Shown piece after piece: positions 38,528 to 49,077 of a stretch of 64,000 nt of DNA (positions within the stretch are counted from its first letter, which is position 1; every line of letters begins with the position of its first letter). The notes under the pieces were generated by a model. The model searched no databases and had not been told where the DNA came from. It saw only the letters and a program-made list of their open reading frames with translations. The DNA lies in NCBI GenBank assembly GCA_965250285.1, contig OZ252299.1:192001-256000 (forward strand). The letters are read 5' to 3'. The position numbers and the translations under genes are program-made. The stretch is from Myxococcota bacterium. GTDB lineage: Bacteria > Myxococcota_A > UBA9160 > UBA4427.

Positions 38528-39097
38528 TCACGCGCGGCAGCGAACGAACACGATCCGGTCGGCCGACTCGATGCGTGCGGCGACGTGGGTGGTGCCCCGG
38601 CGACCGCTCGCGGTCGCGCAGGTGAGCAGGCCGCTGATCCAGCCGACCAGCGACGGCGAACAAGGTCGGTGCGCCTCGAGTTCGAGCAGGTCACCGGGCA
38701 GCGCCAGGCGAGGGCGTCGCCAATGCCCGAGCCGAATCAGGCGATCGAGTCGCAGGGCGAGGCGCGTCGTGGGCGCCTCTACGAGGGCCGTGATCCGCGG
38801 CACGCTGCGGCGACCGAGCTCACGCAACACGACGGGCATGCGGCCGCCGTGGACGTCGACGATCGCTTCGATGACCCGTTCGGCGACCGCGACCGGGATC
38901 CACTGATCTTCGGTCGGTGGCTCGAAGAGCAGGGCGCGCTCCTTCCCCCGCAGCAGCGCATCGAGCGACACGATGGGCCGCCCGCGTTCGGCGACGAGCT
39001 GGCCGAGCCAGTCGACCGCCGGTGCAACGAGGTCACCGCGCACGTGGTCGCAGGGTGCGGAATGAAGCGAAACCGGGTCGCGGGACGTCGCGCGCAT
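38528..39097 (-). CDS. Hypothetical protein (possible V4R/HNOB-like ligand-binding fold)
   Basis: W.PV....R..E, LRELGR and GWISGLL patterns; ATG 39097 lies 10 nt after a sigma28-like motif. Confidence 0.5.
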   Translation of the reverse strand: MRATSRDPVSLHSAPCDHVRGDLVAPAVDWLGQLVAERGRPIVSLDALLRGKERALLFEPPTEDQWIPVAVAERVIEAIVDVHGGRMPVVLRELGRRSVPRITALVEAPTTRLALRLDRLIRLGHWRRPRLALPGDLLELEAHRPCSPSLVGWISGLLTCATASGRRGTTHVAARIESADRIVFVRCRA

Positions 39098-39107
39098 ACC
39101 CTCGTGC

Positions 39108-39133
39108 ATCGGCGCGGGCAGCGTGGGGCTTGA
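39108..39133 (-). promoter_or_regulatory. Putative sigma28 promoter
   Basis: Minus strand TCAAG-N15-GCCGAT. Confidence 0.55.
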
Positions 39134-39180: not shown

Positions 39181-41517
39181 TCAGTCACTCTGCGCCGCAC
39201 CGCCCGAGCCGAAGCGGGGCGGCGGTTCGGGCAGGCGCAGCAGGAGCGCCGCGAGGAGCGTCACGTCGGCGAGCAGGCAGAGCACCATCACGCTGCCGGT
39301 CAGCCAGCCGAGGTTGCGCGTGATCGCGAACTCTGAGAATGCGAAGAGCCCGAAGGCCGCGGTGAGCATGAGCGTGCTCGCGGTCACCGGCGGCAGCACC
39401 TCGCCCAGACAGCGACGCAGGGCGTCGACGGGGGCGAGGCCCGCGCTTCGCGCGACGACGAACGTGGTCGTCACGTGGATCGTGTCGTCGACCGCGATGC
39501 CGAGGGCGAGGCTCCCCATGACGACGGTGCCGGCGTCGATGGGAATGCCGAGCAGGCCCATGAACCCGAAGATGATCACGAGCGGGATCGCGTTTGGGAC
39601 GAGCGCGACCGCCGCGAGGCGCGGCCAGCGGAAAATCGCGAACAGGATCAGAGAGATCACGGCGAACGCGACCGCGAGGCCGCTCAGCTGGCCGTAGGCG
39701 ATGGCCTCCTGCGCGCGGGCGAACTCGTACATGATGCCGGTGGGCGTCGCGGTCGTGCCCGCGACGCCGTGCTCGCTCCACCAGGTGCGCGCATGGCCCG
39801 CCAGCTCGACGAGCTGTGCCGAGGCGTTGTCGTCGACGCGGAGAATCACGTTCGCCGTCTCTCGACCGGGCGTGATCACGTCGTGGATCATCTCGACCGA
39901 CTCGAGCATCAGCATGTACTGCGCTGCGAGCATGCGGCTGTCGGGCAAGGGCTGACTCGCGTCGTCCAGAAAGCCGCCGTGGATCTGTCGCAGCGGGTCG
40001 GCGACCGAGATCGCCTTGCCGACCTCGATGCGCTGATCGAGGTGCGCCGTCAAGCCGTCGATGGCACGCAGCACGTCGGGCTCGAGCACGGAGCCGCCTG
40101 GCTCGGCCTCGATCACCACGTTCATCGGGCTGATGCCGGAAAGCTCGGCGCGGATGGACTCGTACGCGTCGCGCACGGGATGCCCGATCGGGAGCCAGCG
40201 TGTCGCGTCGGTCTCGACGTCGACCGAGCCGAGCCCGAGCGCGACGAGCCCGGCCACGAGGGCCCAGACCCCGCCCACCCAGGCGGCGCGTCGATCGGCG
40301 AGGCGCGCGAGCGTCGCGGCGACCGGACCGCGCAGGCCGCCGACGAGTCGCGGCGGACGATCGGGCAGCGGGCGCAGGCAGAGCGCGGCCGGGACGAGGG
40401 TGAGCGTCGCGAACGTCACCGTCAGCACGCCGAGCGCGCCGAAAACGCCCGTGGCCCAGACCACCTCGATGCGAACCAGCGTCAGCGCAAGAAAACCGAC
40501 GACGGTCGTGAGGCCCGAGAGGGCGATCGGCAGCGTCACCGGGTCGAGCGCGTCGGCGAGCCCCGCCCGGGCGCGCACGCCACTGGCCGCCGTGAGGACG
40601 TGCATCGCATAAGCGCATCCGAGCGCGAGAATCGTCGACGGCAGCACCATCGTCGAGATCGACAGCGAGGATCCGACCCACCCCATGGCCGAGACGCTCA
40701 CCCACACGCCGGCCAGGCCGGGCAACAGACAGAGCAGCACGGCCAGGGCCGAGCGGAACATCCACAGCAGGAAGCCCCCGATCACGAGGGCGGTCAGCGG
40801 CGCGAACGTGAGGATCTCGCCCCCGGTTCGCTGATTCGCTTCGACCCGAAAGACGGGCACGCCCGACACCCGCGCGCCGATCGGGTCGGCGAGCGCATAG
40901 ACCTGCTCGAGGAGCCGGGCCTGTCGATCGGCCGCATCGGCTTCGAGGATCAGGTTGAGCGCGAAGGTGCGACCGTCGGCCGAGACCAGGCTGTCGGGCA
41001 GGATGCGGTCGCGGCCGGCGAGTCGGCGCGCACGCTCGGTCGCGGTCAGAAGATCGTGGCCGCCCGGATCGAACGCGGGATCGAGATGCAGCGTGCCTTC
41101 GACGTCGACGTCGATGACGGGCAGGCTCGCCACGCTGTCGACGCGGGCGACGCCTTCGAGGGTCTCGAAGCGCTCGCTCAGGTGCGCGACCCGGTCGAGT
41201 GTCTCGGGTGCCCAGGCTGGCTCGGCGGTGAGCGCGACGACGATCAGCTCGTCGCCGCCGAACAGGGTCTGGCTCTCCTGATAGACCGCCCACTCGGCGC
41301 CGCGATGATCGAGCACGCTGTCGGTCGAGGTGTCGACGCGCAGCCAGAGGAGCCCGGGCGAGAGGGCGATCAGAGCGAGCAGCCAGCCGACGATCGTGAC
41401 GGCCGGCCGGCGCATGGCGGCGCGGGTCAGGCCGCGCGGCAGCCGCGAGCGCGCAGCGAGCCAGGGCGGCGCGGCGCCGGGCCGCTCGCCTTCGGCTTCC
41501 GAATGCGCGTCGCTCAC
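39181..41517 (-). CDS. MMPL/RND-superfamily lipid transporter
   Basis: Two repeats of TM, periplasmic loop and 5 TM; FGGDE, SGLTTVVGF, LGIAVDDTIH; GTG start inferred (ORF track starts at 41550). Confidence 0.92.
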   Translation of the reverse strand: MSDAHSEAEGERPGAAPPWLAARSRLPRGLTRAAMRRPAVTIVGWLLALIALSPGLLWLRVDTSTDSVLDHRGAEWAVYQESQTLFGGDELIVVALTAEPAWAPETLDRVAHLSERFETLEGVARVDSVASLPVIDVDVEGTLHLDPAFDPGGHDLLTATERARRLAGRDRILPDSLVSADGRTFALNLILEADAADRQARLLEQVYALADPIGARVSGVPVFRVEANQRTGGEILTFAPLTALVIGGFLLWMFRSALAVLLCLLPGLAGVWVSVSAMGWVGSSLSISTMVLPSTILALGCAYAMHVLTAASGVRARAGLADALDPVTLPIALSGLTTVVGFLALTLVRIEVVWATGVFGALGVLTVTFATLTLVPAALCLRPLPDRPPRLVGGLRGPVAATLARLADRRAAWVGGVWALVAGLVALGLGSVDVETDATRWLPIGHPVRDAYESIRAELSGISPMNVVIEAEPGGSVLEPDVLRAIDGLTAHLDQRIEVGKAISVADPLRQIHGGFLDDASQPLPDSRMLAAQYMLMLESVEMIHDVITPGRETANVILRVDDNASAQLVELAGHARTWWSEHGVAGTTATPTGIMYEFARAQEAIAYGQLSGLAVAFAVISLILFAIFRWPRLAAVALVPNAIPLVIIFGFMGLLGIPIDAGTVVMGSLALGIAVDDTIHVTTTFVVARSAGLAPVDALRRCLGEVLPPVTASTLMLTAAFGLFAFSEFAITRNLGWLTGSVMVLCLLADVTLLAALLLRLPEPPPRFGSGGAAQSD

Positions 41518-41694
41518 GAGGCGGCCTCCCGCCGGCTGCGGATGCCGCACCCGTCGAGCCCCACCGCCACTGCGTGGGCGCGACGGCGCAGGGCGTGGGC
41601 GGGATCCGTCGTGTGCGGGGGTTTCGCAGCGATCTGAGGAGGCTCCCGGCGGTGAATTGGACCGCCTCTCGAGCGTGCAAGCGGCGCCAGAAAA

Positions 41695-41741
41695 TGGCGA
41701 TGCCGTTGCGAATTCGCAACTTATGATTCAACACGTTGATT
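41695..41741. promoter_or_regulatory. Regulatory cluster: sigma54-like motif, perfect 16-bp palindrome and IHF consensus site
   Basis: TGGCGATGCCGTTGCG (41695-41710, GG-N10-GC); GTTGCGAATTCGCAAC (41705-41720); minus-strand AATCAACGTGTTG (41729-41741) fits WATCAANNNNTTR. Confidence 0.55.
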
Positions 41742-42082: not shown

Positions 42083-44608
42083 ATGCTGGACCGGTCCGAC
42101 CGGATCGCTGACGACGCGTTGCGCGGGCTTCACCCCTCGGCGATCCGAGGGGACGAGGCCGTTCGCGGCGTGCTCGAGCGCGCCCGCCTGGCCGGCGCGA
42201 TCTTTCACCGAGGCCTCAACGCCCGGGTCGACCTCGAGACGGCCGAGCTGCTCGGGCTCGCCGGCGATCGACTGGTGCTCCGAACCCACGGCTTCGACCG
42301 GCGCCCGCGCCGTCAGGTCTTTCTGAACTTCGAGCTCGACGGGCGCCCCTACTTCTTCGCGACCGAGCCGCTCGAGTCGGTCGATGCCGGACGACTCGTC
42401 GTCGCGATGCCGAGCGCGATCTATTTCACCGAGCGCCGCGATCGTCACCGCGCTGCGCCGATCCCCGATCGCGGTGATCCGAGCCGGGTCGAGCTGAGTG
42501 CGCATGGGGATGCCTGGGTCGAGGCGCGCGTCGCCGACATCTCCGCCGGTGGACTCGGGCTCGAGGTCGAGAGCGACGGCCCGCTGAACGGCACCGGTGT
42601 GGCGGGCCAGGACGACGTCGCGATTCGCTTCGTCGACGGTCGACGTGCGGGCGAGTGGACCCGCGCGCGTGTCCGCAACCGCGGCGCCGACGAGCATCGG
42701 CCGGGCTGGACGCGCATCGGCCTGACCGAGGGCGCGGCGCGCGCGACACAGCTGATCGCGGTCGATCGACGCAGCGACGTCGTCGGCGGGCTCGAGGCGG
42801 CCGAGCCGGCGCGACACGGCGCCGACGAAGTCACCACGCGCATCGCCAGCCCCGAGATCGAGGTTGCCCGCTTCCTCGAAGCCGGCGGCCGCGAGATCGT
42901 GGCCCTGGTCGATTCGACGGGCCCGCGCGCGGGCGGTACGGCCGTGATCCTGCAGAACGGGTGGGGGCAGACCAAGGAGGCGCTGCTGCCCCTCGCCCGC
43001 ACCCTCGTCACGACCTTCGGCGCCCACGATGAGCCGCTCACGGTGCTGCGATTCGATGGCGTCCAGAAGCGCGGCGAGAGCGAGAAGGATGCGCCGAGTC
43101 GGATCCCCGGCCGCGAGTGCCACCGCTTCGTGTTCTCGCAGGGGGTGGCCGACCTTCAGGCGTGTGTCGACTACCTCCAGGCCGACCCCGATCGACGACC
43201 CGACCGAATCTTCGTCGTGAGCTTCAGCGCCGGTGCGATCGAGGCCCGCAAGGCGGTCGCGCTCGACCGCGGCGCGCGCATCGACGGCTGGATCAGCGTG
43301 GTGGGGGCGCCCGACCTGCAGTCGATGACCCGCAGCATCTCGGGCGGCGTCGACTTCGTCGCGGGCTTCGAGCGCGGCCTGCGCTTCGGCCGCCAGGAGC
43401 TGCTCGGCGTCGAGGTCGACATCGACCTGCTGGCGCCCGACGCCGCCGAGCTCGGCGTGCTCCACATCGAAGATGCCCGGGCCGATCTCGCGTCGATCGG
43501 CGTGCCGATCGTGTGGATCCACGGCCAGCACGACGCATGGATCAGCCTCGACCGGGTCCGCGACGTGCTCTCGTACGGCGACACGTCACGGCGCAAGCTG
43601 ATGCTGTTGCCCATCGCCCATCGCCTCGAGACCAGTCGACAGGCGAGTGAGACCTTCCGGCTGATCGCCCACGAGCTCGCGGCGATGTCGCTCGGGCGCA
43701 GCCTCGAGCCCGTTGCGCCCGAAGCGCGCGACGTGCGCGCGAGACGGCGCGTCGAACGCACGCGTCGTCCGCGCCCGGGCACCGATCTGCGCGCGTTCTG
43801 GAAGGACTATCTGGTCGGGCGAGACGGCTCGGTCGGGATCGAGCTGATGACCGCGTGCAGCGACTATCGCCTGCTGATGGCCGAGCAGATCGATGCGCTC
43901 GAGCTGCAGGGGGGCGAGCGGATCGCCGATCTCGGCTGCGGCACGGGTTCCCTCGTGATGGAGCTGGCGCGTCGGGCCGATCGACCCGAAGGCCTGCACG
44001 TCTTCGGCTTCGACTACGTGCGAGACGCGCTCGCGCGGGGCCGGGCGCGCTTCGATGCGACGGGCCCGCACGGAGATCTGAGGCTGAACCTCACCGAAGC
44101 CAACCTCGACGTCGGCGCGGGGCCGCTCGGCGTGCCGGCCCCGACCGGCGCCTTCGACTGCGTGATGGCGTCGCTGCTGCTCAGCTACGTCGAGCGGCCG
44201 GCCGTGCTGCTCGACGAGATGCTGCGCATCCTGCGCCCGGGCGGCACGCTCGTGCTCTCTTCGCTGCGGCGCGACGCCGACATCTCGCGGCTCTACGTCG
44301 AGAGCCTGGCCGAGATGCAGGTGGGCGATGCCGCCGCCGCGCTGCCCGAGCTCGGTGCGGTCGGGCTCGACCGGGTCGCGCGCAACTTCCTGAACGACGC
44401 CGCCCGGATCCTCGAGTTCGAGGAGCAGGGGGCCTTCGCTTTCTGGGAGCCCGACGAGCTCGTCGACATGCTCGCCCGAGCCGGGTTCCGAGACGTCGAG
44501 ACCCGCCTCGCGTTCGGGACGCCCGCCCAGGCGGTCGTGGTGCGCGCGCAGCGCCCGGCGGCCGTGCTGGTGCGCCCAGCGACGAGCGAGCGCGCCTACG
44601 GCACCTGA
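42083..44608 (+). CDS. PilZ-domain / LuxD-like acyl-ACP thioesterase / class I SAM methyltransferase fusion protein
   Basis: PilZ RxxxR (ERRDRHR) and DxSxxG (DISAGG); alpha/beta-hydrolase VSFSAG, HDAW, AHRL; methyltransferase ADLGCGTG and LRILRPGG. Confidence 0.85.
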   Translation: MLDRSDRIADDALRGLHPSAIRGDEAVRGVLERARLAGAIFHRGLNARVDLETAELLGLAGDRLVLRTHGFDRRPRRQVFLNFELDGRPYFFATEPLESVDAGRLVVAMPSAIYFTERRDRHRAAPIPDRGDPSRVELSAHGDAWVEARVADISAGGLGLEVESDGPLNGTGVAGQDDVAIRFVDGRRAGEWTRARVRNRGADEHRPGWTRIGLTEGAARATQLIAVDRRSDVVGGLEAAEPARHGADEVTTRIASPEIEVARFLEAGGREIVALVDSTGPRAGGTAVILQNGWGQTKEALLPLARTLVTTFGAHDEPLTVLRFDGVQKRGESEKDAPSRIPGRECHRFVFSQGVADLQACVDYLQADPDRRPDRIFVVSFSAGAIEARKAVALDRGARIDGWISVVGAPDLQSMTRSISGGVDFVAGFERGLRFGRQELLGVEVDIDLLAPDAAELGVLHIEDARADLASIGVPIVWIHGQHDAWISLDRVRDVLSYGDTSRRKLMLLPIAHRLETSRQASETFRLIAHELAAMSLGRSLEPVAPEARDVRARRRVERTRRPRPGTDLRAFWKDYLVGRDGSVGIELMTACSDYRLLMAEQIDALELQGGERIADLGCGTGSLVMELARRADRPEGLHVFGFDYVRDALARGRARFDATGPHGDLRLNLTEANLDVGAGPLGVPAPTGAFDCVMASLLLSYVERPAVLLDEMLRILRPGGTLVLSSLRRDADISRLYVESLAEMQVGDAAAALPELGAVGLDRVARNFLNDAARILEFEEQGAFAFWEPDELVDMLARAGFRDVETRLAFGTPAQAVVVRAQRPAAVLVRPATSERAYGT

Positions 44609-44699: not shown

Positions 44700-47435
44700 A
44701 TGCCGGACCGCACCCGCGACGAGGCCACCCAGCGCCGCGCGCTGTATCGCGAATTTCGCGAGATGACCGAGGGCAAGCCCCTCGTCGACTCGCTGCGCAA
44801 CGCCGCCCTGATCTTCGGTGCCCTGCAGACGATCTTCTTCATCCCGGCCGACTGGCTGCTCTTTCCGGATCAGTTCTCGTTCTTCCTCAAGGCGCGCCTC
44901 GCCGAGAATGCGCTGCTCGCGCTCGTCTACTTTCAGATCGCGAAGCGGGCGCCGGTCGCCGGCGCCGCGCTGGTCATGTGGTCGGGCGCGGCGCTCTTCC
45001 TCGCGATGGTGCACGCCACCGGGGGCGTCGAGAGCGGCTACTACGTCGGGCTGATCCTGATCGTCATCGGCATGGGGGTGCTCGCGCCGATCTCGGCGAC
45101 CCAGGCGAGCTGGATCAACGGGCTGATCTTCGCCGGCTACACCGCCGTGCCCTTCATCAGTCACGGCACGAGCGAGCCGATCGCCTGGCCGACCTTCGCG
45201 ATGCACGCGTTCTTTCTCGTCACGGCGTGCTTCGAGTCGATTCTCGCGTGCTTCCACATGGACCGCATGCGTTTTCAGGACTTCCTGCAGAAGCGCGAGA
45301 TCGAGCGTGCGCGGGACGAGCTCGCCGAGCTCGACCGGGCCAAGTCGCGCTTCTCGGCGAACGTGCACCACGAGCTGCGCACGCCGCTCACGCTGATCCT
45401 CGCGCCCCTCGATGCCCTGCGAGGCCGCGAGTTCGGTGAACTCTCCCGGGACGTGCGGCACGTGCTCGACACGATGCACGCGAACGGCCGCCGTCTCTAC
45501 AAGATGATCAACAACCTGCTCGACCTCTCGAAGCTCGAGAGTGACCAGCTCGAGGTCGTTCGGCGGCCGACGCATGTGGGTCGGTTGATTTCCGAGCTGG
45601 TCACCGCCGCGCAACCGCTCGCCGAGCGCAAGGGCGTCACGCTCGAGATCGCTGGCTTCGACGACGCACCCGAGCTGAACGTCGATCCCGAGGCGATCGA
45701 GAAGGTCTTCGTGAACCTCGTCGGCAACTCGCTGAAGTTCACCGAGCCGGGCGACCGCGTGCGCGTCGAAGCCGAGCGCATCGACGATGGCCTCGAGATC
45801 CGCGTGGTCGATACCGGCATCGGGATCCCACACGAGAAGGTCGACTCGATCTTCGACCGATTTGCCCAGGTCGACGGGTCGGTGACGCGCCGACACGAGG
45901 GCACCGGCATCGGTCTGGCCATCGCGCGCGAGATGGTCGAGCTGCACGGCGGTCGCATCGTCGCCGAAAGCGCGGGGCTCGGCGAGGGCACCACCGTGCG
46001 GGTCTGGCTGCCGCCCGGCCAATGCGACGCGAACGCCGAAGACGAGGTGCTGCAGACCGACAGCGGTTCGGTGCTCGGTCTCTCGCACTCGATCGAAGCG
46101 GTCGAAGCCGACCTCATGCTCGAGGCCGATGAAGCCGCCGCACACGGCGACGGCGCCGATCCGCGTCTCGATGACGTGGAGCGCACGGTCGAGCGCTACG
46201 AAGACGCCGAGATGGTGGCCGCACGCGGCGGCGTGAAGGGGCCCTCGGGCGAGGTCGCCGAGGTGTTGATCGCCGAGGACAACCCCGACATGCGGGCGCT
46301 GCTCGCGACGCTGGTGGGGCGGCACTACCGCGTGCGAGCTGCCCGGAACGGGCGCGAGGCGCTCGAGATGGCGCGCGAGCAGGCGCCCGATCTCGTCCTG
46401 TCCGACGTGATGATGCCCGAGATGTCGGGCACCGAGCTGTGCCAGGCGATCAAGTCGGATCCGTCGCTCGAGAATCTGCCCGTCGTGCTCGTGACCTCGA
46501 AGGCCGAAGACGAGATGAAGATCGAGGGGCTCGAGCTCGGTGCAGACGACTACGTCACCAAGCCGTTCCACCCGCGTGAGCTGCTCGCGCGCATCCACTC
46601 GCTCGTCCGCGTCAGCACGCTGCAGCGCGCGCTCGAGGGTCGCAACGATCAGCTCGAACGCACGCTCTCGGAGCTCAAGGAAGCCCAGGTCCAGCTCGTG
46701 AAGAGCGAGCGCCTCGCCGCCGTCGGTGAGCTGGCAGCGGGGATCGCCCACGAGGTCAACAACCCGGTCAACTTTGCCCTCAACGCAGCGCGGGCCATGC
46801 AGCTCTCGGTGGAAGAGCTCGATGACCTGGCCGAGTCGGACGGTGAGACCGCCAAGGAGCTGGCCGAAGCACAGGAGGTCGCCGAGACGATCCGCGAGCT
46901 GTCGGGGATCGTGAGTGAGGGGCTCAACCGCACGTCGGTGCTCGTCGCCGATCTGCGCGACTTCGCGTCGGGCAACCAGGGCAAGGCGCGCTCGACCGTC
47001 TCGCTCGAACGCGGCGTGCAATCGACCCTTCACCTGCTCGGTCGGGCCGCGTCCGATGCGGGCGTCGCGCTGGTGCCCGAGATTCAGGAGGGCGTGGCCT
47101 TCGTCGAGGGCGACGCCGGGGCGCTCAACCAGGTGATGCTGAACCTGGTGAAGAACGCGATCCAGGCGGTCGGCGAGGGCGGGCACATCGAGGTCGCGCT
47201 CTCGGGCGACGACGAGACCGTGCGGTTCACGGTGCGCGACGACGGGCCTGGCATCGACGAAGAGACGAGCCTTCGGCTCTTCGAGCCCTTCTTTACCACC
47301 AAGGCGCCGGGCGAGGGGACGGGTCTCGGTCTCTCGATCAGCCGGCAGATCGCGCGCGATCACGGCGGCGATCTCGACGTCGAGAGCACGCCCGGCGAAG
47401 GCGCGACCTTCACGCTGACCTTGCCGGCCATCTGA
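44700..47435 (+). CDS. Membrane hybrid histidine kinase: multi-TM sensor, HisKA/HATPase, REC, second HisKA/HATPase
   Basis: About 6 TM helices; HHELRTP, N/G boxes (NLVGNSLKF, DTGIG, GTGIGL); REC (IAEDN, SDVMMP, KPF); second AHEVNNP, NLVKNA, DDGPG, FFTTK, GTGLGL. Confidence 0.95.
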   Translation: MPDRTRDEATQRRALYREFREMTEGKPLVDSLRNAALIFGALQTIFFIPADWLLFPDQFSFFLKARLAENALLALVYFQIAKRAPVAGAALVMWSGAALFLAMVHATGGVESGYYVGLILIVIGMGVLAPISATQASWINGLIFAGYTAVPFISHGTSEPIAWPTFAMHAFFLVTACFESILACFHMDRMRFQDFLQKREIERARDELAELDRAKSRFSANVHHELRTPLTLILAPLDALRGREFGELSRDVRHVLDTMHANGRRLYKMINNLLDLSKLESDQLEVVRRPTHVGRLISELVTAAQPLAERKGVTLEIAGFDDAPELNVDPEAIEKVFVNLVGNSLKFTEPGDRVRVEAERIDDGLEIRVVDTGIGIPHEKVDSIFDRFAQVDGSVTRRHEGTGIGLAIAREMVELHGGRIVAESAGLGEGTTVRVWLPPGQCDANAEDEVLQTDSGSVLGLSHSIEAVEADLMLEADEAAAHGDGADPRLDDVERTVERYEDAEMVAARGGVKGPSGEVAEVLIAEDNPDMRALLATLVGRHYRVRAARNGREALEMAREQAPDLVLSDVMMPEMSGTELCQAIKSDPSLENLPVVLVTSKAEDEMKIEGLELGADDYVTKPFHPRELLARIHSLVRVSTLQRALEGRNDQLERTLSELKEAQVQLVKSERLAAVGELAAGIAHEVNNPVNFALNAARAMQLSVEELDDLAESDGETAKELAEAQEVAETIRELSGIVSEGLNRTSVLVADLRDFASGNQGKARSTVSLERGVQSTLHLLGRAASDAGVALVPEIQEGVAFVEGDAGALNQVMLNLVKNAIQAVGEGGHIEVALSGDDETVRFTVRDDGPGIDEETSLRLFEPFFTTKAPGEGTGLGLSISRQIARDHGGDLDVESTPGEGATFTLTLPAI

Positions 47436-47504: not shown

Positions 47505-48560
47505 ATGGCAGCGAAGAAGAAGAGCACCAAGAAGGCTTCGAAGAAGAAGGCGGCGAAGAAGAAGGCCGCGCGAAAGAAGACCGCGCGTCAGAAGACGGCG
47601 GCGCGCAAGAAGCTCGCCATCGCCAAGACGAGCAAGGGCCTCGCGCCGGGCGATCTCTCGCTCGGCGTCGAAGCGCCCGAGCTGGCGGGGCTGGTCAGCG
47701 AGATCGTCGGCCACGGCGGCGAGGCGCTGGGCGCGTACCGCGAGCCGCTCTCGGGTCGGCCGATGCTGCTCGCGGCGCTGCCGATCAAGTCGGTCGAGCC
47801 CACGCCGTTTCAGCGCGACCTGTCACCCACCCACACGAAGCGACTCGCGCAGAAGATCGAAGAGAGCGGATCGTTCCTCGACCCGATCATCGTGGTGCGC
47901 GGCGAAGACGGCCGTCTCTGGACGCCCAACGGTCGCCATCGTCTCGCGTCGGCGAAGGTGATCGGCCTGCAGTCGATCACCGCGCTCGTCTCGCCCGACG
48001 AAGACCTCGCCTTTCGCATTCTGGCGCTCAACACCGAGAAGGCGCACAACTTGAAGGACCGCAGCCTCGAGGTGATCCGGATGGCGCAGGAGCTCGCGCG
48101 CCGCCGGCCGCGCTCGCGCGAGACCGACTTTGCCGCCGAGTTCGAGGCGCCCGAGCTGCTGACGCTCGGCCTGATCTATCTCGAGAACGGCCGCTTCGCC
48201 GGCGGCGCCTACAGCCCGTTCCTGAAAAAGGTCGATCGCTTTCACACGAAGACGCTGCCGGCGAGCCTAAAGGAGCGCGAGGGCTACGCCGCGCGGCTGG
48301 TCGAGATCGACGGCGAGGTGAAGCGCATCATCGCCGAGCTGCAGGAGCGCGGGTTCAAATCGCCCTATCTGCGCAACTACGTCGTCGCGCGGATCAACCC
48401 GGTCCGCTTCCACCGGGCCAAGAAGGGCGAGACCGAGCCGCCGATGGCGATGAAGGCGGCGCTGATTCGCATGGCCGCGTCGGCGAAGAAGTTCGACGTC
48501 GCCGGCGTTCGCGAGCGCGATCTCGCGCTCGTGTCGGCCGCCGTGGGCGGGAGCGACTGA
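47505..48560 (+). CDS. ParB/Srx N-terminal-domain protein with histone-H1-like Lys/Ala-rich N-terminus
   Basis: AAKKKSTKKASKKKAAKKKAARKK tail; TPFQRD...DPIIVVR...PNGRHRL ParB-like motif. Confidence 0.8.
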   Translation: MAAKKKSTKKASKKKAAKKKAARKKTARQKTAARKKLAIAKTSKGLAPGDLSLGVEAPELAGLVSEIVGHGGEALGAYREPLSGRPMLLAALPIKSVEPTPFQRDLSPTHTKRLAQKIEESGSFLDPIIVVRGEDGRLWTPNGRHRLASAKVIGLQSITALVSPDEDLAFRILALNTEKAHNLKDRSLEVIRMAQELARRRPRSRETDFAAEFEAPELLTLGLIYLENGRFAGGAYSPFLKKVDRFHTKTLPASLKEREGYAARLVEIDGEVKRIIAELQERGFKSPYLRNYVVARINPVRFHRAKKGETEPPMAMKAALIRMAASAKKFDVAGVRERDLALVSAAVGGSD

Positions 48561-48564
48561 AGGC

Positions 48565-49077
48565 GTGTCGCCGCTGCGACTCAGCGTGATCCGCCACGCG
48601 AAGTCGAGCTGGAGCGACCCCGAGCTCGCCGATCACGATCGTCCGCTCAACAAGCGCGGACGTCGCGATGCACCCCGGATGGGTGAGCGCCTGCACGCTC
48701 GCGGATTCGCGCCCGACATCATCTTCACCAGCACGGCGCTGCGCGCACGGCTCACCGCCGACGCGATCGTTTCGGCCTGCGGGCTCGAATCGCGGGTGCG
48801 GGCACGGCGGGCGCTCTATCACGCCGAACCCGAAGAGATCCTCGACGTCGTCGAGGCGGGCGCAGCCGCGGCGGGGTCGCGACACGTCGCGATCGTCGGG
48901 CACAACCCCGGCTGCACCGAGCTCGTGGTGTGGCTCACGGGTGCCGACCTCGACAACCTGCCGACGTGTGGGGTGGCGACGGTGCGCATCGACGGCGAGC
49001 GCTACGCCGATGCGCGCAGAGGCGCGGGGCACCTCGAATCACTCGAGACGCCGAAGAACGATCCGCAACGCGCCTGA
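48565..49077 (+). CDS. sixA: SixA-like histidine phosphatase
   Basis: IRHAKSSW...DHDRPLNKRG, STALRA, VGHNP. Confidence 0.85.
   Translation: MSPLRLSVIRHAKSSWSDPELADHDRPLNKRGRRDAPRMGERLHARGFAPDIIFTSTALRARLTADAIVSACGLESRVRARRALYHAEPEEILDVVEAGAAAAGSRHVAIVGHNPGCTELVVWLTGADLDNLPTCGVATVRIDGERYADARRGAGHLESLETPKNDPQRA

Follow-up and report, generated by a model that had tools for sequence, protein, structure and literature searches.

A PilZ, LuxD-like hydrolase and methyltransferase fusion as the likely lipid-signal synthase of a Phc-type circuit in Myxococcota

The Phc quorum-sensing system of Ralstonia and Cupriavidus is encoded by phcBSRQ and employs methyl 3-hydroxymyristate or methyl 3-hydroxypalmitate. 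LuxD is the myristoyl-ACP thioesterase of luminous bacteria and can also transfer the acyl group to small acceptors. CqsA, the synthase belonging to the receptor CqsS, is a PLP enzyme. According to the available text of PMC7912708, PhcB forms methyl esters out of the cognate fatty acids, and the secreted ester is sensed by PhcS, as described in the available part of PMC11960443. CqsS shares its six-helix sensor design with adenylyl-cyclase anchors (available text of PMC4821796), and PixB of Myxococcus is described as a c-di-GMP-binding protein that carries an acetyltransferase (available text of PMC8316039). In the literature searched, there is no paper combining PilZ, LuxD and a methyltransferase, although subscription papers, figures and bioRxiv supplements (tables of PilZ architectures) could list such a combination, and none on myxobacterial phcB or Phc homologues; the available portions of two PilZ surveys contain no passage on the fusion architecture.

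The window analyzed here, a stretch of 64,000 nucleotides from a genome of the Myxococcota, encodes a protein in which a PilZN-PilZ module, a LuxD-like hydrolase and a SAM-dependent methyltransferase are joined, with the gene of a hybrid sensor kinase directly downstream (Table 1). On balance, this fusion is likely to make the signal of a Phc-type circuit, in which an acyl chain would be released from ACP and methylated, the product would be sensed by the PhcS-homologous kinase, and the PilZ domain would tie synthesis to c-di-GMP.

Table 1. Features of the fusion locus, in positions of the window
Feature	Position	Strand	Remarks
MMPL/RND membrane protein in divergent orientation, putative exporter of the lipid product	39181..41550	-	Pfam MMPL E 8e-28
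Sigma-54-like motif overlapping a perfect 16-bp palindrome (weak evidence)	41695..41720	+	Divergent intergenic region
Fusion gene, predicted lipid-signal synthase	42083..44608	+	841 aa: PilZN-PilZ, LuxD-like hydrolase, SAM methyltransferase
PilZN/xPilZ-like beta barrel	42137..42427	+	~Residues 19-115; beta strands in model; weak YcgR-type PP4397 profile match
PilZ domain	42431..42730	+	RxxxR (R119/R123), DxSxxG (D152/S154/G157)
LuxD-like alpha/beta hydrolase	42848..43774	+	Triad Ser382/Asp484/His513; LuxD-like C-terminal helix (P546, invariant E558)
Class I SAM methyltransferase	43859..44560	+	Motif I and acidic D644 invariant; generically related to PhcB
Hybrid sensor kinase, predicted cognate receptor	44700..47435	+	PhcS-homologous six-helix (MASE8-like) sensor, ~44700-45290
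Kinase cores	His 45369; REC Asp ~46404; His 46749	+	HisKA-HATPase; REC; second HisKA-HATPase

The three-domain architecture is confirmed as real and conserved. The reading frame is open and full length across 137 homologues (homologue search at E ≤ 0.001, 7985 scored candidates), which mostly cover more than 90% of the fusion; the 120 of them that were listed are mostly full length and 39-81% identical to it, and the named records are mainly metagenome-assembled genomes of Myxococcota/Deltaproteobacteria. The window genome carries a single full-length copy, and the fusion is present in 51 of the 401 sampled genomes of the phylum. Variants of 900-1200 amino acids, found among 20 proteins scanned, contain extra PilZ domains and, in one case, a receiver domain as well. 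The AlphaFold model of the fusion has a pLDDT of 88.5 and a pTM of 0.87. Conservation was assessed in 83 near homologues and in 41 phylum-wide loci, the latter being the window locus and those from 40 of 50 further genomes with a match (20/26 of the window's order, 20/24 outside). The first-pass annotation had read the protein as a PilZ domain with both c-di-GMP motifs behind a PilZN-like beta region, a LuxD-like hydrolase with an intact triad, and a SAM methyltransferase, and this division holds: the motifs ERRDRHR (42431), DISAGG (42536) and ADLGCGTG (43925) and the codons of Ser382 (43226), Asp484 (43532) and His513 (43619) are found where it had placed them.

Judged by profile and fold, the middle domain is LuxD-related, LuxD ranking above the other alpha/beta hydrolases in both. 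The LuxD structure 1THT was the top PDB match to a profile of 39 hydrolase sequences (E 7e-9; runner-up E 2e-5), with an alignment that spans most of the LuxD chain at ~18% identity. The profile was needed for this result; the single sequence retrieved 1THT alone, at E 0.77. Foldseek with the fusion model also ranked 1THT first, and VIA-align superimposed 275 residues on it with a Z of 27.5 and an rmsd of 2.6 Å (runner-up Z 25.9). This fold alignment extends to residue 564, while those of the other listed hydrolases stop at ~533-541; feruloyl esterases, at Z 25-26, lie ~1.6 Z below LuxD and end near residue 540. Ser382, Asp484 and His513 align to Ser114, Asp211 and His241 of 1THT, the catalytic triad of LuxD; assigned by this alignment, the three residues are invariant in 83/83 near homologues and 41/41 phylum-wide loci. 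The glycine-poor nucleophile elbow, the cap and the C-terminal helix align with LuxD as well, and the C-terminal P-x4-L-x6-E pattern of 1THT is present in the fusion, with E558 kept in 83/83 and 41/41. A Pfam scan of the window protein gave Hydrolase_4 (E 2e-4) and no match to Acyl_transf_2 (PF02273). Single-sequence scans across the 39 hydrolase domains of the family gave Hydrolase_4 in 15 and Acyl_transf_2 in 6, and one homologue passes the PF02273 cut-off at E 1.6e-8 (P0253), as do others. A search of plasmids with the hydrolase returned one weak match. From its kinship with LuxD, acyl-ACP thioesterase function is predicted for the domain.

In the PilZ domain, RxxxR is kept in 83/83 near homologues and in 40/41 phylum-wide loci; [DN]xSxxG is kept in 80/83 near homologues but in 25/41 phylum-wide copies (proximal PilZ). 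The Pfam scan of the window protein alone assigned PilZ with an E of 3e-4 and 21.4 bits, slightly below the cut-off of 22.5. Ahead of this domain the model forms beta strands, and the N-terminal profile weakly matches the YcgR-type protein PP4397 across both barrels (E 0.014). On the strength of the motifs, control of the fusion by c-di-GMP is predicted. The methyltransferase was recognized by Pfam at E 3e-14; its SAM motif I and D644 are kept in 83/83 near homologues, and motif I also in 41/41 phylum-wide loci. Its match to the PhcB family (termed K1 here) at E 6e-9 reflects generic class I likeness, and its Atlas neighbours are generic UbiE-like clusters; by this comparison, the methyltransferase is no PhcB orthologue. 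Neither full-length profile searches nor Atlas searches identified the methyl acceptor.

The kinases at the fusion loci are one orthologous hybrid kinase with a PhcS-homologous sensor. In 41/41 loci the fusion is accompanied, on its own strand, by a kinase that has this membrane sensor, as the next gene in 31, the second in 7 and farther away in 3, and the sensor was detected in 50 of the 51 fusion genomes. The sensor profile matches PhcS of R. pseudosolanacearum with a probability of 98.9 (E 1e-17) and, with a probability of 98.8, a Paraburkholderia kinase that has MASE8-bearing relatives annotated as PhcS. Authentic PhcS was located via the Paraburkholderia operon and a subsequent homologue search; the start of the R. 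pseudosolanacearum protein used fits the published phcS primer, and its His230 is as given in the available text of PMC11960443. A metagenome scan with that primer gave no match. An Asp and an Arg in the membrane sensor, D51 and R66, are invariant in 101 sensors (38 fusion-linked, 33 PhcB-linked, 30 PhcS), and the kinase core of PhcS resembles the second core of the window kinase (36%) more than the first (21%). The REC domain shows a weak, REC-only match to a Paraburkholderia regulator (E 4e-4). In fold, the sensor model matches the membrane anchors of the adenylyl cyclases Rv1625c, AC5 and AC9 and ImcA (Z 15.5, 14.6, 13.7 and 10.5); the runners-up, at Z 10.3 and below, are designed or unrelated helical bundles, and helical folds may reach such values by chance. 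By profile, ImcA is matched at E 1e-8. Pfam MASE8 matches 9 of 38 sensors (best E 5e-6), and a search of NCBIfam gave no specific family for the sensors.

The sensor occurs well beyond the fusion, its profile matching 162 of the 401 genomes. In the higher-scoring part of these matches, 40 kinase loci without an adjacent fusion were inspected, comprising 39 of the 112 fusion-less genomes and a second kinase of genome G238. The neighbour of the kinase is a PhcB-family (K1) gene in 33 of the 40; the JGI name of this family is "3-hydroxypalmitic acid methyl ester biosynthesis protein", and it aligns at E 2e-55 with a methyltransferase from Paraburkholderia, encoded on a plasmid in an operon that resembles cfa-phcB-phcS-regulator. 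As for the other seven, two loci end at contig edges, two show no obvious synthase, two (L170, L175) have a PilZ protein with an uncharacterized C-terminal domain plus a separate methyltransferase in this slot, and one (L184) has a type I PKS. Cyclopropane-synthase-family genes stand alongside PhcB in 4/40 loci. K1 was found in 87/401 genomes, with no PhcB-family match anywhere in the window genome. At the cut-offs used, the 162 sensor genomes divide into 49 with the fusion only, 80 with K1 only, 1 with both and 32 with neither; 25 genomes with both would be expected under independence, a statistic that overstates exclusion because the genomes are related. The sole genome with both, G238, has two kinase loci with one synthase at each. 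A quick tree of 83 receptors forces at least six partner changes on well-supported branches, including swaps inside the window's own family, though with long branches for L058 and L185. Within one family, kinases that are very close to each other stand beside either synthase (G273 and G238 as compared with the window), which suggests similar ligands. K1 itself starts with a PilZ-like domain, recognized by Pfam in 14/26 and homologous to the PilZ domain of the fusion with a probability of 95.7. Two things were tested directly here: that the sensor is homologous to authentic PhcS, and that the fusion exchanges with PhcB. As the methyltransferases of fusion and K1 are alike only generically, the exchange would be a non-orthologous displacement, and the best reading of these comparisons is that the fusion replaces PhcB in the kinase-linked slot. 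Its position in the PhcB slot beside a PhcS relative makes it a likely producer of a lipid signal.

The most likely chemistry of the fusion, already proposed in the first-pass annotation, is cleavage of acyl-ACP followed by methylation of the acid. The LuxD-related domain would attack acyl-ACP at Ser382 and release the acyl chain, and the methyltransferase would convert the freed acid to the methyl ester with SAM. Both the acyl-ACP substrate and carboxyl methylation are inferred, a view strengthened by the occupation of the PhcB slot beside a PhcS homologue and by the formation of the PhcB esters from fatty acids. An unlikely alternative is that the same circuit works with other chemistry, namely acyl transfer to an acceptor or methylation at hydroxyl, nitrogen or carbon, yielding a new signal class. 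The ability of LuxD to acylate small acceptors would fit, as would the relation of the methyltransferase to PhcB in fold only, the PKS or PilZ protein plus methyltransferase in the slot of other loci and the cyclopropane-synthase-family genes next to PhcB. Against this, the receptor retains the invariant Asp/Arg pair of PhcS, very close kinases within one family accept either synthase, and no gene for making an acceptor is conserved across the fusion loci.

The methyl ester would leave the cell by diffusion or via the MMPL protein, whose gene is found in 17/41 fusion loci (16 belonging to the window's order), and would bind to the PhcS-like sensor of the adjacent kinase. Patchy occurrence of this putative exporter and the location of the sensor inside the membrane, with short loops, would also suit a cell-internal lipid cue that informs the cell's own kinase of fatty-acid flux and c-di-GMP instead of density. 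This is improbable, since methyl esters require no exporter, as established for the volatile 3-OH PAME, and since the homologous receptor PhcS senses a secreted ester, as noted above (available part of PMC11960443). From the sensor, the signal would run via HK-REC-HK to regulators further down, in many cases an EAL phosphodiesterase. An EAL-family gene follows the kinase in 13/20 distant fusion loci (Pfam-confirmed for 4), and no EAL protein adjoins the window locus. Binding of c-di-GMP at the PilZ domain would set the activity of the synthase, and where an EAL gene follows the kinase, the signal would alter c-di-GMP and feed back on synthesis. Export by the MMPL protein, binding of and allostery by c-di-GMP, and density-dependent signalling are all predicted in this proposed circuit. 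Of 14 relatives examined, one (L078, 81% identical) shares the sigma-54-like motif with its palindrome upstream of the fusion, and upstream motifs are not conserved past this closest relative.

Two enzymes of potentially opposite action in one chain raise the thought of a make-and-break switch, in which the methyltransferase forms an ester, the hydrolase removes it and c-di-GMP sets the direction, in the manner of BioC/BioH or as built-in quenching. Carboxylesterases stand directly beneath LuxD in the fold ranking, and a hydrolase next to an ester-forming domain could be futile if unregulated. Nevertheless, such a switch is decidedly improbable, given the first place of LuxD by both profile and fold, including cap region and C-terminal helix, and PhcB loci without such a hydrolase. 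Very improbable is a CheR/CheB-like switch that would methylate and demethylate the adjacent kinase protein, with PilZ acting as in MapZ. It could draw on the strict kinase linkage and on MapZ-CheR1 as known PilZ control of a methyltransferase (10.1101/2020.02.11.943704, available text). However, the fusion has no CheR or CheB family match, its hydrolase is LuxD-like, and the genes found in the slot in its stead belong to a family of small-molecule ester synthases. A role like that of LuxD in luminous bacteria, providing a LuxC/LuxE reductase with free fatty acid, is barely credible for the LuxD-like domain. The genome does contain a luxE/luxC-like pair and LuxE matches (E ≤ 1e-10) occur in 23/27 fusion genomes of the window's order, but the pair lies ~4.87 Mb from the fusion, and the distribution of LuxE makes this role unlikely, with matches in 0/24 fusion genomes outside that order and in 93 genomes that lack the fusion. 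As the earlier remark had it, the locus is no part of a lux operon, and the remote pair does not track the fusion; the fusion is LuxD-related, yet no lux component.

Summarizing, the preferred reading of the fusion as synthase of a Phc-type circuit puts forward, for the myxobacterial lineages, a diffusible lipid signal together with a receptor as a candidate pair open to testing, and Phc-type signalling would reach far past the Burkholderiales. On this reading, a single gene would lead from acyl-ACP to the methyl ester and could be assayed in E. coli, LuxD relatives may have a role besides bioluminescence, and c-di-GMP would act directly on an autoinducer synthase. A wider and more tentative generalization may be drawn. 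PhcS-type receptors could constitute a large, unrecognized lipid quorum-sensing family across the Myxococcota, present in the 162 genomes mentioned, in which the synthase slot is swapped among PhcB, the fusion, PKS and others. All PhcB-like and fusion synthases would carry PilZ-type modules, so that c-di-GMP would gate synthesis directly; the otherwise unexplained N-terminal region of Ralstonia-type PhcB could then be read as a degenerate PilZ-like domain. In the fusion, a LuxD relative would for the first time serve signalling, not light, and the protein would be a self-contained acyl-ACP-to-ester autoinducer synthase.

Compared with known systems, the fusion resembles the PilZ-enzyme proteins, such as PixB of Myxococcus, BcsA and Alg44 as well as the YcgR-type PilZN-PilZ proteins, in joining PilZ to an enzyme; those have other catalytic domains, and none is reported, in the available texts, as a signal synthase beside its cognate receptor. 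The sensor fold is that of the six-helix adenylyl cyclase anchors (Rv1625c, AC5, AC9) and ImcA, and probably also that of CqsS/LqsS. With the DSF systems (RpfF/RpfC/RpfG and RpfF/RpfR) the locus would share an acyl-ACP thioesterase-type synthase, a membrane hybrid kinase and a c-di-GMP phosphodiesterase output (available text of PMC7912708). In contrast, RpfF is an enoyl-CoA hydratase and thioesterase without methylation, while the fusion combines an alpha/beta hydrolase with a methyltransferase; the output here is EAL, not HD-GYP, and PilZ is located on the synthase itself. LuxD (1THT, PF02273) is the nearest match in profile and fold, down to triad, elbow, cap and C-terminal helix; unlike LuxD, the domain is a distant relative in sequence, lies between PilZ and a methyltransferase in one protein and occurs without a lux operon, its co-occurrence with LuxE being confined to one order. 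As in Phc, the synthase gene is immediately upstream of a homologous six-helix MASE8-type kinase, the synthase includes a SAM methyltransferase, and PhcB-family genes occupy the same slot in sister loci. Unlike in Phc, the synthase adds a LuxD-like hydrolase and a PilZN-PilZ module with intact motifs, the kinase is double (HK-REC-HK) with a PhcS-like second core, and the output is often an EAL protein. Since the fusion is not PhcB, the system stands outside Phc proper, albeit Phc-like in its presumed working.

Operons that combine a PilZ-PhcB gene with a PhcS-like double kinase gene are widespread in Myxococcota. They are found at 33 of the 40 compared kinase loci, chosen among the higher-scoring ones, which have no adjacent fusion gene (L148-L187), often together with a REC-kinase gene, and the PhcB-like family K1, which fills the synthase slot of the fusion beside orthologous kinases, is present in 87 of the 401 Myxococcota genomes sampled. 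No literature on these myxobacterial operons was found, and they have apparently not been reported before.

The slot has further occupants. The third is a multi-PilZ protein accompanied by a methyltransferase, the C-terminal domain of the former being uncharacterised and acyltransferase-like by eye; at another locus, a type I PKS gene is found (see table). PKS-like genes also flank the fusion loci L059 and L060. In L148, L154, L183, L187, and the Paraburkholderia plasmid operon L188, a gene of the cyclopropane-fatty-acid-synthase family adjoins the PhcB-like gene, which suggests a modified acyl chain in the signals of these five loci.

Features in the window, the host genome, and the compared loci
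Feature	Position	Strand	Context
ParB-like and SixA-like histidine phosphatase genes	window 47505-49077		downstream of kinase
Sigma-54-like motif overlapping perfect 16-bp palindrome	window 41695-41720		
193-aa ORF	window 38528-39109	-	downstream of MMPL gene
Aminotransferase, luxE-like, luxC-like genes, consecutive	G000:C1:5102897-5106836		upstream of suf operon
Multi-PilZ protein (810-820 aa) and 265-aa methyltransferase	L170:9195-12600, L175:8962-12186		synthase slot
Type I PKS (2242 aa)	L184:8931-15659		directly upstream of PhcS-like kinase

Around the fusion, the SixA-like phosphatase family recurs downstream of the kinase in 6 near loci and could serve in phosphorelay reset. The sigma-54-like motif with its palindrome is retained in the closest relative only, and the 193-aa ORF had no match in a Pfam scan. 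LuxE-like genes are near-universal in the class of the window organism, where they occur without LuxD partners.

The N-terminus of the PhcB-like protein of Paraburkholderia graminis (L188:7022-7400, plasmid NZ_CP024936.1) aligns with the PilZ-like domain of the myxobacterial K1 homologues; the RxxxR motif is absent from it in this alignment, and position 22 is an arginine. The R22C mutation of Ralstonia phcB is reported to be located outside any known domain, at a site conserved in Paraburkholderia (PMC6989110). Judged from the P. graminis sequence, the N-terminus of PhcB may be a degenerate PilZ domain.
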